A DNA stretch of 23,160 nucleotides. Source: an uncultured virus (IMG/VR IMGVR_UViG_3300030116_005269) (taxonomy: Duplodnaviria; Heunggongvirae; Uroviricota; Caudoviricetes). A program made the translations under genes and the position numbers. Below the pieces are notes generated by a model. It did no database searches and was not told where the DNA came from. It saw only the letters and a list, made by a program, of their open reading frames with translations. The DNA lies in the IMG/VR virus record IMGVR_UViG_3300030116_005269, positions 62,001-85,160 of that record; one strand, 5' to 3'. This document shows, piece by piece, positions 10,859 through 22,885 of this stretch (positions within the stretch are counted from its first letter, which is position 1; the number at the start of each line of letters is the position of its first letter).

Positions 10859-11074
10859 AATTTTGTCGTTGGCGACAAGTTAAAAATTGCAGGTTAGAAG
10901 TATTTTACTTCTAAGTACCCTCTTAAATTTACAACTAGTTGATCATAAATTGTGAGCATCTCCCTGCAAACTAAAGGGCTAGGTTTTCTTATACTATACA
11001 CTACATTTAGTATTCAAATTTGTACACATAATACAAATAGTCATCATTATCTAAATAACTTTGTCTAGCCCTAG

Positions 11075-11150
11075 TGGAGCAGGGGGGAATTGCACCCCCG
11101 TAGTAAAGGTTGTTAATTGGGAACACCCTAAACTCGACTATCACTGCCCC
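11075..11150 (-). ncRNA. tRNA-like RNA resembling the tRNA-like domain of tmRNA with no tag reading frame
   Basis: Acceptor stem GGGGCAG/CUGCUCC with G3:U70 and discriminator A; T arm GGGGG-UGCAAUU-CCCCC; no D stem; UCGA before the central helix. Confidence 0.65.
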
Positions 11151-11791
11151 TATAAATCTAGTTGTTCTTTAATCCACGAGATTAACTCTTGTGGACTATT
11201 AGTCCCTAGATCTTCTAATTTTTTTGACTCCCAATCATAAAAATAATCGGCGTCAACACCAAACTTATATCTACCGAACTTAAATCTAACGGTAGTTTCG
11301 TCCTCTTCGTCCTCGATCTCTTCATCTTCAAAGACTTTAGACTCCATATTCTTTAAAATTCCGTCAATATCGTCTAAATCAAAGCCCGTACCCGACAAAT
11401 CGGTTGTTTCAGTTGCTACTCTTTGTAGAAGATCAACTAACTCACCCTCTTTCCAACCACCTGCAATGGTAAGTTGGTTTGACGCAATCAAGTATGCTTC
11501 TGCCTCTTCGTCGCTTTCAAAACTTATACCACAAATAACAGGTACTAACCAATTACCCTCGTCATCAACTTTTATGTTTTTAGGAACAATAGAGTCACTT
11601 TCGCTTGATAATTGTTTTAAAGTTTCTAAACGACCGTGACCTGCTACAAGTTTACCCGTAGTTTCGTTCCTTACGGGTGGCTCAGTAAACCCAAATCTTT
11701 TAATAGACATATAGATCTCCCCAATGTCATGATCTTTTGGATTTGCGTCAGCAGGTAATATTTCGTCTAATTTTAAATATTCTAATTTCAT
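11150..11791 (-). CDS. ParB/Srx N-terminal domain protein
   Basis: NPKDH...SIKRFGFTEP...LVAGHGRLE and AYLIASNQL. Confidence 0.85.
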   Translation of the reverse strand: MKLEYLKLDEILPADANPKDHDIGEIYMSIKRFGFTEPPVRNETTGKLVAGHGRLETLKQLSSESDSIVPKNIKVDDEGNWLVPVICGISFESDEEAEAYLIASNQLTIAGGWKEGELVDLLQRVATETTDLSGTGFDLDDIDGILKNMESKVFEDEEIEDEEDETTVRFKFGRYKFGVDADYFYDWESKKLEDLGTNSPQELISWIKEQLDL

Positions 11792-19976: not shown

Positions 19977-20519
19977 ATGGTCGGCTCAAACGATAGCTTT
20001 GAGCAACGAAATGTAAATAATAAAGTTGATCGTGCTGATCAAAGTATGATCAACTATTTACATAGTAGAAACTTTGTAGCTAATAAAGAATTAAACGAGC
20101 TAACCGATGAACAACAGGGTAGCTACGCTAAAACAGGGTTTGACCCCAAGACTAATTACTTACCAAGATATTGGGACTATGTTGATTTATGGGAAATACC
20201 CGATTACATAATTGTCCCAAAGTTATCACACAAAACATTTTTTAGTGAAGTAAAAGGAACTAATAAGTTTAAGTTAAGTGACTTTGAGGGCATGACTCGT
20301 CTATATAATGATGTTCAACATTTAAACGACACTATTAAATATAGAAAAAGATATATTGAAGTTGGAGTATTTTTGTTTTTAACTAGAGAAGATCAACCGA
20401 CTAAATATTTAGATTATGAAGATTTAAAGCTAATGTGGGATAGTATCGACGAATTAAAAAGTTATCCCGAAAAAGATAAAGACGGAAATACAAAACACTA
20501 TAAGGAATTAAAAATATGA
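19977..20519 (+). CDS. PD-(D/E)XK nuclease-fold protein
   Basis: IPDYII...FFSEVKG. Confidence 0.55.
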   Translation: MVGSNDSFEQRNVNNKVDRADQSMINYLHSRNFVANKELNELTDEQQGSYAKTGFDPKTNYLPRYWDYVDLWEIPDYIIVPKLSHKTFFSEVKGTNKFKLSDFEGMTRLYNDVQHLNDTIKYRKRYIEVGVFLFLTREDQPTKYLDYEDLKLMWDSIDELKSYPEKDKDGNTKHYKELKI

Positions 20520-21250
20520 TTATAAATGCTGATTGTTTTGAAATATTACCTGATATACCCGACGAGTCTATACAACTTATTTATAGTGACTTACCGTATA
20601 ACGAAACGGGTAATAAGTGGGACAAAGACATAATTGATCTTGATCTGTTGTTTAAAGAGTATTTAAGAATACTTAAACCCGACGGAACTATTGCAATGCA
20701 CTCAACTATGAGATTTGCAAACAAATTGATCAATACTGTTCCCGAGTACTACAAGTATGAATGGGTTTGGGAAAAAGATAATGGTACAAACTTTGTAAGC
20801 TCCAAGTATCAACCTCTTCGAGTACACGAATTTATTTTAATATTTACTAAGGCAAGAGTGACTTATGGAAAGACTCTTGGCGTAAAGTACAACCCACAAA
20901 TGACAAAAGGTAAGCCGTATAGTCAAGTTTCGGGTAAAAGTAGTGAGAATTGGAAAGGTAAACCACTTAAAAATGTTCGTACACACAATCCTACGGGCGA
21001 TAGACACCCAAGAACTGTAAAATTTTTTAAAAGAGATACCCCAAAAGTTCACCCGACACAAAAACCCGTAGCTTTAGCAGAGTTAATTGTTAATAGTTAT
21101 ACTGATAAAGGTGACATAGTTTTTGATAGTTTTATGGGTAGTGGGACAATAGGAGTAGCAACAAAGAAAAATAAGCGTAAGTTCTTAGGTATAGAGTGGA
21201 ACTTAGATTATTTTAACATTGCAAAAGAAAGGTTGAATGGGACTTTATAA
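20516..21250 (+). CDS. N4/N6 DNA methyltransferase (beta order) 1
   Basis: DLPY, HPTQKP, DSFMGSGT. Confidence 0.92.
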   Translation: MIINADCFEILPDIPDESIQLIYSDLPYNETGNKWDKDIIDLDLLFKEYLRILKPDGTIAMHSTMRFANKLINTVPEYYKYEWVWEKDNGTNFVSSKYQPLRVHEFILIFTKARVTYGKTLGVKYNPQMTKGKPYSQVSGKSSENWKGKPLKNVRTHNPTGDRHPRTVKFFKRDTPKVHPTQKPVALAELIVNSYTDKGDIVFDSFMGSGTIGVATKKNKRKFLGIEWNLDYFNIAKERLNGTL

Positions 21251-21992
21251 CGGGGATTGTTTTGATTATTTCAAAACTCTTGATAGTGAATCTATCGATT
21301 TAGTATTTACTGACTTACCTTATGGTACGACAAATTGTAAATGGGACACAATTATTGACTTAGATTTAATGTGGTCGGAGCTTGATCGGTTAGTAAAAGA
21401 TAACACACCGATACTTTTTACGGCGTCACAACCATTTACAAGTACGCTAGTAAGTTCTAACTTTGAATGGTTTAGACACGAGTGGATTTATCAAAAGATT
21501 GCAGGTAGCAACTTTGCACAAGCTAAGTATCAACCAATGAAAGAACACGAATCAGTTTTAGTATTTGGTAGAAAAAAACCTAATTATTACCCGATCAAAG
21601 AAGAACGACGAGGATCTGGAAGTCAAAGAGCCAAATACAAATATAGCGACAAATCGAGAAAAGCCGTTGGTGAGTTTATTAGTTCGGGTATAAACGAGGG
21701 TACTTACAACCCTGATAAAGATTCAGGTAATGAAAAGCTTAGATACCCAAGCTCCGTACAACTATTTAACAATCGGGCTAAAGGAGATCGAGGACTACAC
21801 CCTACACAAAAACCACTAGCAATGGCCGAGTATTTTATTAAAACATATTCGCAAGAGTTAGATAATGTTTTAGATTTTACTTTTGGAAGTGGCACTACTG
21901 CTTTAGCTTGTTTGAATCTAAATAGATATTTTTATGGAAGTGAAACCGACAAAGAATATTATGATATAGCAGTTGAAAGATTATGGAATTAA
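21237..21992 (+). CDS. N4/N6 DNA methyltransferase (beta order) 2
   Basis: DLPY, HPTQKP, DFTFGSGTT. Confidence 0.92.
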   Translation: MGLYNGDCFDYFKTLDSESIDLVFTDLPYGTTNCKWDTIIDLDLMWSELDRLVKDNTPILFTASQPFTSTLVSSNFEWFRHEWIYQKIAGSNFAQAKYQPMKEHESVLVFGRKKPNYYPIKEERRGSGSQRAKYKYSDKSRKAVGEFISSGINEGTYNPDKDSGNEKLRYPSSVQLFNNRAKGDRGLHPTQKPLAMAEYFIKTYSQELDNVLDFTFGSGTTALACLNLNRYFYGSETDKEYYDIAVERLWN

Positions 21993-22885
21993 ATTTAATT
22001 AACAAAGATGTTTTTAAAGGATTGAAAGATTGTGAGTCTAAATCCGTCGATATGGTTTTACTTGACCCACCTTACTATCGTGTAGTTGATCAAACTTGGG
22101 ACAAGCAATGGTTTACTTTTGATGAATATAGAGAGTGGTTTATCTATTTTTTAAATGACTTAGACAAAGTTGTTAAGCAATCAGCTACTTGTTGGGTATT
22201 CGGTATGCCTTATCAATTAGCAAAACTTTTACCAGACTTTGAATACTATGGTTGGACATTCAAGCAACAAATTGTCATTGATAAAGGTTTAAAGAGTGTG
22301 GCAGGAAGATCTGGTGAGTCTTTAAAACAATTTCCTACTGCTACCGAGCATATTTATATGTTTTTCAAAGAGAGCCGACCGATAATTAGAAATATATTAC
22401 AACATGAGAGAAAAGTTATGGGTATGAGTGGCGTAGAAGTAAATAAACATTTAGGTAAAGCGACAAGTGGAGGTGGTACATTTAGCACGATTGCTTCAAC
22501 CAAAAAGCCACTAGAGTATTTAAACTACCCAACAAGAAAAGATTGGGTCAAGCTACAAGAAATCTTTGATCTTCCCGAGTATGACGATTTAGTTTACACA
22601 TTTAATTCTTTTTCAGGTTTTACTGATGTTTGGAATGATTTTGATTTTTACAAAATTAAAAACAAAATACATCCGACGCAAAAGCCCGTTGAACTTTATG
22701 AACGAATCATAAGAACAGGACGAGCCGATCAAGTCGTGTTAGATTGTTTTTTGGGTAGTGGATCTTCTTTGATAGCAAGTCAAAATCTTGAAGTTAGCAA
22801 GTTTATAGGTATCGAAATAGATGAAACTATGATAAATAAAGCAAAGGACAGATTCACCCTGCATATCACCGATTTGCAATCCTAA
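21983..22885 (+). CDS. N4/N6 DNA methyltransferase (beta order) 3
   Basis: DPPY, HPTQKP, DCFLGSGSS; longer central insertion. Confidence 0.92.
   Translation: MELNLINKDVFKGLKDCESKSVDMVLLDPPYYRVVDQTWDKQWFTFDEYREWFIYFLNDLDKVVKQSATCWVFGMPYQLAKLLPDFEYYGWTFKQQIVIDKGLKSVAGRSGESLKQFPTATEHIYMFFKESRPIIRNILQHERKVMGMSGVEVNKHLGKATSGGGTFSTIASTKKPLEYLNYPTRKDWVKLQEIFDLPEYDDLVYTFNSFSGFTDVWNDFDFYKIKNKIHPTQKPVELYERIIRTGRADQVVLDCFLGSGSSLIASQNLEVSKFIGIEIDETMINKAKDRFTLHITDLQS

Follow-up and report, generated by a model that had tools for sequence, protein, structure and literature searches.

The window analysed here, a stretch of 23,160 nucleotides, forms the final 23 kb of a record of an uncultured virus (IMG/VR IMGVR_UViG_3300030116_005269), which has 85,160 bases and is rated complete. 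On its minus strand, at the end of a gene for a ParB-like protein, it carries a 76-nt RNA gene (11075-11150, read from the sequence as running from G1 to the discriminator A, before CCA addition). We found that this element is a real conserved RNA gene for the tRNA-like domain of transfer-messenger RNA (tmRNA) without the mRNA-like domain, and this identity is secure. Trans-translation is the main bacterial ribosome-rescue and protein-tagging route. By analogy with a similar molecule of Mycobacterium phage DS6A, we propose that the phage RNA, a tmRNA without a coding sequence (CDS-less), could inhibit trans-translation in the host by competing for SmpB, a proposal to which we give an even chance. 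The predicted mature molecule at 11075-11150 is supported by the alignment to the Rfam tmRNA model, the minimum-energy fold and the covariation in 12 distinct homologues. A first-pass annotation of the window had claimed that the element is the tRNA-like domain of a tmRNA, has alanine identity and lacks the mRNA-like domain, and the end-to-end Rfam match, the covariation and the layout of the DS6A element all support this claim.

The layout that had been described for the element, namely a 7-bp acceptor stem with G3:U70, a discriminator A73, a stemless D loop, an interrupted helix and a T arm, was confirmed on the minus strand. The 5' strand of the acceptor stem, GGGGCAG (11144-11150), forms 7 bp with 11076-11082, including G3:U70. 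It is followed by a stemless 10-nt D-loop analogue, UGAUAGUCGA (11134-11143), which has UCGA at its 3' end and lacks the GG doublet. The interrupted hairpin corresponding to P2 (11103-11133) consists of GUUUAGGGUGUU, the loop CCCAAUU and AACAACCUUUAC, that is, a 12-nt/12-nt helix closed by a 7-nt loop. The 3-nt linker UAC (11100-11102) lies directly 5' of the T stem, and the T arm (11083-11099) is made of GGGGG, the 7-nt loop UGCAAUU and CCCCC with a perfect 5-bp stem. The acceptor 3' strand CUGCUCC and the discriminator A complete the molecule (11075-11082, with A73 at 11075), and the trailer CUA (11072-11074) occupies the place where CCA would stand, in agreement with the claim that CCA is not encoded. 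Merely 31 nt separate the D-loop analogue from the linker, and a resume codon, a tag reading frame and pseudoknots are absent. The unconstrained minimum-energy fold is exactly the proposed structure (-27.7 kcal/mol, z = -2.07), and 6 of 200 shuffled sequences fold as stably as the element.

The Rfam tmRNA model (RF00023) aligns with the element from end to end, covering model positions 1-374 of 374 with about 326 interior positions deleted. The score is 30.7 bits, with E values of 1e-10 when 551 bases were searched and 4e-12 for the 85-kb genome; it does not reach the gathering cut-off of 47 bits, and no Rfam family matched the element at or above its gathering score. Two sister elements from the ParB-linked family score 41.4 and 41.2 bits with RF00023, also below the 47-bit cut-off. 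The model for permuted two-piece tmRNA (RF04321) gave an insignificant 17.3 bits (E 0.2), and mitochondrial tmRNA (RF02544) was unlisted at E values up to 10, with two lower-scoring matches of the same clan hidden from that listing. ARAGORN called no genes either in the window or in the whole genome; thus, the possibility of a canonical tRNA found no support from this program.

The ParB-like protein, and subsequently an alignment of three proteins of this type, served as queries in the search for relatives. They yielded related loci on five more viral contigs and 12 metagenome contigs, in which the ParB-like gene is 66-100% identical. In all 17 other contigs with a ParB-like identity of at least 66%, the element is found at the end of the ParB-like gene, and the 18 contigs in all contain 12 distinct element sequences of 78-82 nt including the 3-nt trailer. 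A covariance model of the family (R1) matched none of 15 loci with ParB-like genes of 27-52% identity and had no further match in the rest of the phage genome. Among the 12 distinct sequences, 96.8% of 252 cells are standard pairs, versus 54-61% when the 3' partners were slid by 1-3 columns. Both-sided base changes occur in 15 of 21 pairs, and none of 500 shuffles reached the observed values; fitting the alignment to the structure biases it towards that structure, but the acceptor and T stems are end-anchored and unambiguous. Covariation is therefore present among the homologues.

The distribution of these changes is informative about the individual parts of the molecule. Acceptor pairs 1-4 (G-C, G-C, G:U, G-C) and the discriminator A73 are invariant in all 12 distinct sequences, and pairs 5, 6 and 7 change on both sides. 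Both-sided changes affect all nine modelled pairs of the P2-like helix and three of the five pairs of the T stem. The dinucleotide AC directly 5' of the T stem (columns A50 and C51) is invariant, and both DS6A and the Rfam tmRNA consensus have it too. A recurrent feature of the family is the loop motif CC(N)AAUU, the central loop being 7-16 nt long in different members. Ten of the 12 members have a GG doublet in the D-loop analogue and a T loop of the type UUCGAnU; the window and its closest relative, L033 (ParB-like protein 93% identical), lack the doublet and have UGCAAUU as the T loop. L033 differs from the window by compensatory changes, in which the acceptor pair G7-C is replaced by U7-A, and by further ones in the hairpin; the divergent variant of the window type is therefore itself under selection for the fold. 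The trailers are CUA in ten sequences, CAA in one and CUU in one, and CCA is encoded in none of the 12.

The closest published counterpart is the element of Mycobacterium phage DS6A, which is listed as "TLD only" in the work of Hudson, Lau and Williams (2014), with a sequence that is little more than the tRNA-like domain. The passage of that work on DS6A states, citing Mao et al. (2009), that a similar molecule is a strong inhibitor of tmRNA, irrespective of whether it can be charged, and that titration of SmpB may be the cause. The tmRNA database paper of 2025 (PMC11915505), in its text on such forms, says that the DS6A form inhibits endogenous tmRNA in E. coli, and names there DS6A alone among phages, beside CDS-less mitochondrial tmRNAs and two plastids. 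We located the DS6A element at 28478-28560 of JN698994 (tmRNA Website tmID 11587), where it is unannotated in GenBank; it scores 43.2 bits with RF00023 and 39.7 bits with the marine-family model R1. Like the element of the window, it is about 80 nt long and phage-encoded beside replication genes, with a GGGG acceptor stem containing G3:U, a discriminator A and the trailer CUA. It also shares the stemless D-loop analogue, the single central hairpin in place of pseudoknots and tag frame, and AC before a 5-bp T stem. The two differ in that DS6A has an inner mini-hairpin together with two motifs, UGGUGGUCGAC and GGCAC, which most of the short forms described below also show, whereas the window has a plain loop with the CC(N)AAUU motif, no GG doublet and the T loop UGCAAUU. 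Furthermore, the DS6A element lies 10 nt behind the upstream open reading frame (ORF), whereas G1 in the window lies inside a stop codon, and DS6A has a tyrosine integrase, which we did not find in the phage of the window.

Other tmRNA types are more distant. The CDS-less tmRNAs of jakobid and oomycete mitochondria and the plastid forms of about 65 bp in Mallomonadaceae likewise consist of the tRNA-like domain without a tag frame; as far as PMC11915505 treats them, they are served by nucleus-encoded, imported SmpB and thought to aid rescue. In contrast to these organellar forms, the RNA of the window is carried by a virus into a cell with a full tmRNA of its own. Full-length phage tmRNAs are described as one-piece in Bxz1-like mycobacteriophages and Bacillus phage G and as two-piece in the OM43 phage Melnitz and pelagimyophages, in the portions of the literature that concern them. 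They share with the element a phage-borne homologue of ssrA and an alanine-type acceptor end but, unlike it, keep the tag frame and the pseudoknots, so that full trans-translation is possible in principle. Among open-access papers and bioRxiv, we found no report of a phage family of tag-less mini-tmRNAs.

Two pattern scans of IMG/VR were used to look for more such RNAs, the first with the CTA trailer fixed and the second with the trailer left free; all figures from them refer to the matches listed. The first listed 117 loci, comprising 26 ARAGORN tRNAs, 10 ARAGORN tmRNAs, 58 unresolved loci and 23 short-form candidates. The 118 loci of the second comprised 51 short-form candidates (46 distinct), 35 tRNAs, 15 ARAGORN tmRNAs and 17 others. 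Pooling gave 112 distinct closed forms, and removal of five tRNA-like ones by eye and of 41 ARAGORN tRNAs left at least 66 distinct tag-less tmRNA-like short forms of about 73-85 nt on many unrelated viral contigs (L172-L406), which ARAGORN misses. Model R1 was unsuitable as a classifier, as it also scores phage tRNA-Ala genes (43.3 bits for L191), and ARAGORN, Rfam and a closure rule were used in its place. Among 20 sampled short forms, tmRNA was the best Rfam match at the site in all 20, extended end to end over about 80 nt in 13 and reached 47 bits in four. In a second sample of 20 candidates, 13 had a tmRNA match with E <= 0.001 and three were above the cut-off (seven of 40 in both samples).

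Most of the short forms share one frame, with which DS6A aligns: an acceptor stem, a D-loop analogue of the type xUGGUUUCGAC, a P2 of 7-9 bp enclosing AAA and a mini-hairpin of 3-5 bp, then GGAC and the T arm. The ParB-linked marine family differs from most of them in lacking the AAA and the mini-hairpin and in having GAAC, AAAC or UAC for GGAC. CCA is encoded in 14 of the 46 short forms among the matches listed, compared with none of the 12 marine sequences. Judging from these sequences, the marine family is a divergent branch of the short forms. The kind of tag-less mini-tmRNA that was published from a single phage is evidently widespread. The CUA trailer was considered as a special feature and discarded, as the 46 short forms listed with the trailer left free end in CCA (14), CTA (8), CGA (7), CAA (5) and others. 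Searches with blastn found no cultured phage with the short form L404 and T-arm matches only with the DS6A element.

Several related RNAs were seen along the way. Five unannotated matches in isolates turned out to be three permuted full tmRNAs, one partial tmRNA cut by the end of the locus, and in one case nothing. The three permuted genes, detected with RF04321 (cut-off 47 bits), are in Tunturiibacter phage Tunturi_5 (L410, PP885688; 79.7 bits), Bordetella phage PHB04 (L408, MF663786; 72.8 bits) and Caulobacter phage CcrPW (L409, MH588545; 68.6 bits). Five loci (L186, L207, L222, L257 and L288) carry 118-nt RNA-like sequences with an alanine-type acceptor, a T arm and a long conserved insert, which were called neither tRNA nor tmRNA; these may be intron-bearing tRNA-Ala or a longer tag-less form. 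The 69-nt sequence at L236:153-221 is tRNA-like and of the alanine type; its D arm is normal and the anticodon arm is missing (Rfam tRNA 48.6 bits, no ARAGORN call). In a Rhodobacterales assembly (L089), a closed form of 69 nt shares the T arm, has an alanine-type acceptor stem and encodes CCA, and is either a prophage short form or an odd tRNA.

The fixed neighbour of the RNA gene encodes a ParB-like protein of 213 amino acids (11150-11791, minus strand), which matches PHROG 620 (E 6.7e-32) and has no Pfam hit. The gene ends with TAG, and the claim that G1 is the last base of its stop codon was correct, the G being at 11150. In 12 of the 18 contigs, the last base of TAG is G1; in three others the stop codon TGA coincides with bases 6-8 of the RNA, in two the stop abuts G1, and in one there is a 1-nt gap. 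From the sequence, cleavage by RNase P at G1, if the RNA is processed as predicted, would take away some or all of the stop codon and leave a non-stop mRNA for the ParB-like protein in 15 of the 18 contigs. No promoter-like site was found within about 300 nt upstream of the RNA gene, which makes co-transcription with the replication module likely. Among public runs, two marine metatranscriptomes and a further run of unspecified type contain small shares of the sequence. A contig of 164 nt, assembled from an RNA library, matches 11095-11252 identically and thus spans the junction between the ORF and the RNA. It fits an unprocessed precursor but could be DNA carry-over, and, with no reads at the ends, it is uninformative on the mature termini.

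Inhibition by competition for SmpB would proceed as follows. The RNA would be transcribed at the end of the replication-module operon, which comprises a replication initiator, a single-stranded DNA-binding protein and the ParB-like protein. Host RNase P would cut at G1, the 3' end would be trimmed to A73, and the host CCA-adding enzyme would complete it. With G3:U70 and A73, the RNA is a likely substrate of alanyl-tRNA synthetase, and its tmRNA-like elbow would be expected to bind host SmpB. Having neither a resume codon nor a tag frame, it could not complete trans-translation and would compete for SmpB, possibly also for EF-Tu and stalled ribosomes, with the tmRNA of the host. As an outcome, proteins translated from phage mRNAs that are broken or processed would be tagged and degraded less. 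No SmpB, ArfB or peptidyl-tRNA hydrolase family was matched in the phage (PHROGs, all 114 called ORFs; Pfam, 81 ORFs), so that the RNA would have to use host factors. We infer the processing, charging, SmpB binding and inhibition from what the two papers state, in the passages on it, about a DS6A-like molecule, and we favour competition for SmpB because it agrees with those statements.

Four points weigh against this proposal. The element of the window is the most degenerate variant of the family, with no GG doublet, the T loop UGCAAUU, CUAC for GGAC and only 30.7 bits. These features make SmpB binding less certain here than for DS6A. Trans-translation is helpful to several phages, and the benefit of blocking it is not self-evident. 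The sole RNA-library contig over the element shows neither processing nor, strictly, transcription. Finally, the inhibition by DS6A is known through the citing papers, in the passages that mention it, the original being Mao et al. (2009).

Instead of blocking rescue, the RNA could carry it out without a tag, which we consider unlikely. Charged with alanine and bound to SmpB, it would enter stalled ribosomes and take over the nascent chain, which would be released untagged or with alanine only, by drop-off or by another release factor. Ribosomes would thereby be freed for phage translation without destruction of the product. The constancy of the alanine identity (G3:U70 and A73 in all 12 sequences) argues for this model, as a pure sponge for SmpB would not obviously need it. 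The non-stop ParB-like mRNA that would be created in 15 of the 18 contigs by the processing of the RNA itself would need rescue. Moreover, the mitochondrial CDS-less tmRNAs co-occur with organelle-targeted SmpB and are thought, as far as PMC11915505 discusses them, to help with incomplete mRNAs. However, the PHROGs and Pfam scans revealed no release factor, ArfB or peptidyl-tRNA hydrolase in the phage, there is no evident route by which a ribosome would leave an RNA without a stop codon, and the DS6A-like molecule is stated in the relevant passage of Hudson et al. (2014) to inhibit whether it is chargeable or not.

A more elaborate version, in which inhibition and the stop-codon overlap are combined, is rather improbable. 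The two would form a self-timed switch, with the ParB-like protein made from the non-stop mRNA surviving once the excised RNA has shut down host tagging. The same RNA could blind defences that have SmpB-like sensors, and it could be a widespread tool of take-over. The logic of such a switch can be likened to that of the arfA message of E. coli, in the outline in which that message has been described.

We regard it as doubtful that the RNA is a decoy or sponge for a tRNA-cutting defence nuclease, for a defence system with an SmpB-like sensor, or for RNase R. CoCoNuT restriction systems have SmpB-like domains that are predicted, in the part of their description concerned, to bind tmRNA, and a staphylococcal phage anti-CRISPR (AcrIIIA1) is described, in the text that deals with it, to make tRNA and tmRNA fragments that bind RNase R. 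The phage is also heavily equipped for counter-defence, with at least nine DNA methyltransferase ORFs and an S-adenosylmethionine (SAM) synthetase. In contrast, the element has no link to a known defence or counter-defence gene in the genome or in its relatives, where the fixed neighbour is the ParB-like gene of the replication module. Its strict tmRNA-specific features and its alanine identity point to the translation machinery.

The position of the element could also suggest a role in cis, as tRNA-like punctuation that recruits RNase P to define or stabilise the 3' end of the ParB-like message, the released RNA then having no job; we think this quite improbable. In 17 of the 18 contigs, the stop codon either overlaps G1 or lies immediately next to it, a promoter-like site within 300 nt upstream is missing, and the RNA-library contig bridges the junction of the ORF and the RNA. 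Among 18 unrelated short forms, there are three (L197, L230 and L242) in which the upstream frame is open over the whole flank (47 codons) with TAG ending on G1. Nonetheless, any tRNA-like fold would do for such a purpose, yet the tmRNA features, the alanine identity and the covariation of all nine P2 pairs have been kept. In addition, the DS6A element lies 10 nt behind its ORF and the other 15 of the 18 short forms have no overlap.

Among other identities considered for the element, a two-piece permuted tmRNA was rejected, as the upstream GGGGCAG already closes the acceptor stem, RF04321 gave the 17.3 bits mentioned above and the downstream block is absent in L033. The loop motif CC(N)AAUU could pair with AAUUGGG, which lies at the 3' end of the ParB-like gene, in some relatives; as this pairing fails in the window, L012 and L018, it was dismissed as a by-product of coding. 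When the 26-mer of T arm and acceptor 3' strand from sister elements (L016/L035 type) was looked up in bacterial genomes, most matches were full tmRNA genes, 351-442 nt long, in Bacteroidales, Acidimicrobiia and other groups, and only 14 of 80 of these genes encode CCA, which makes the missing CCA of the element ordinary. This identity of sister elements with bacterial tmRNA 3' ends, together with the accounts, in the parts of the literature concerned, that ssrA is a frequent integration site of phages, which then contain its 3' end, could indicate an ssrA remnant or attachment copy. The search for an attachment site derived from host ssrA was negative: the 3' 25-mer of the element had no exact match in 185,579 bacterial and archaeal genomes (one per species), no integrase family was among the PHROGs and Pfam matches of the phage (all 114 and 81 of its called ORFs, respectively), and both acceptor strands are present and covary. 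A tRNA-Ala, even an odd one, is contradicted by the lack of a D stem, the central loop of 7-16 nt across the family and the negative ARAGORN result. The 45-codon GTG frame that overlaps the element is not conserved as a gene, since L033 has no open same-strand frame across the element and the other relatives have only short unrelated frames. Taken together, it is hardly credible that the element is a remnant or attachment copy of ssrA, part of a gene for a small protein or an odd tRNA-Ala.

The region behind the RNA gene has conserved features of its own. A 22-nt block at 11037-11058 (minus strand) is identical in L003, has close variants in L012, L035, L036 and L037, and overlaps a promoter-like site, TTTAGA-16-TATTAT. 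We considered this block, which contains a triple stop, as part of a tag frame behind the element; the block is absent from L033, L016, L017, L018 and L042, and no frame is kept. Between about 120 and 260 nt behind the RNA gene, there is a module (10894-10981, minus strand; in two relatives L003:3900-3975 and L012:1470-1550) that none of the 12 relatives compared has lost. Its parts are a promoter-like site (TTTGCA-17-TATGAT), a perfect, operator-like palindrome of 10-12 bp (ACAACTAGTTGT in L012 and L033) and next a hairpin whose stem covaries (UUAGAAG/CUUCUAA in the window, GGGGG/CCCCC elsewhere). Behind the hairpin, the relatives have a ribosome-binding site and then the next gene, and the window has a terminator instead; the three conserved blocks of the module each occur once in the genome. 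In L032, the ParB-like and RNA genes are identical to those of the window, and the sequence diverges a few bases past the trailer (after CUAGGG), which places a mosaic junction at the 3' end of the RNA gene.

If inhibition of trans-translation by competition for SmpB is correct, a small phage RNA that blocks or hijacks trans-translation would be a compact take-over device and a natural inhibitor of a pathway that is studied as a drug target. The window adds a marine family that covaries strongly, always has the same gene as its neighbour and shows an unusual stop-codon overlap, the last being the one feature that could lead to something new. Such genes remain unannotated, since standard tRNA and tmRNA finders miss them, and the kind is apparently common in viromes, which makes a systematic study worthwhile.

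The phage itself has a genome of the siphovirus type, which includes genes for tape measure, major tail, HK97-type capsid, portal and terminase. Its large terminase and capsid are less than 31% identical to those of any isolate, and blastn with the region matched no phage record. Weak hints in the sequences suggest a marine actinobacterial host. The acceptor GGGGGUG/CACCUCC of the L003/L035-type elements occurs in two of the 80 bacterial tmRNA loci, both in Acidimicrobiales assemblies, and those two tmRNAs are similar to the phage RNAs at their 5' ends as well. An ORF for a WhiB-like transcription factor (L048:8544-8834; G000 45544-45834, minus strand), which matches PHROG 472 (E 2.4e-25), is located among genes for head and tail proteins. 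WhiB-like genes are typical of phages of Actinomycetota, and this ORF is the main one of the hints at the host. The methyltransferase ORFs are found at G000 55-61 kb (L049:1909-6871) and at 20516-22885 of the window, and the SAM synthetase is at L049:3503-4591; together they would provide self-methylation, presumably against restriction.

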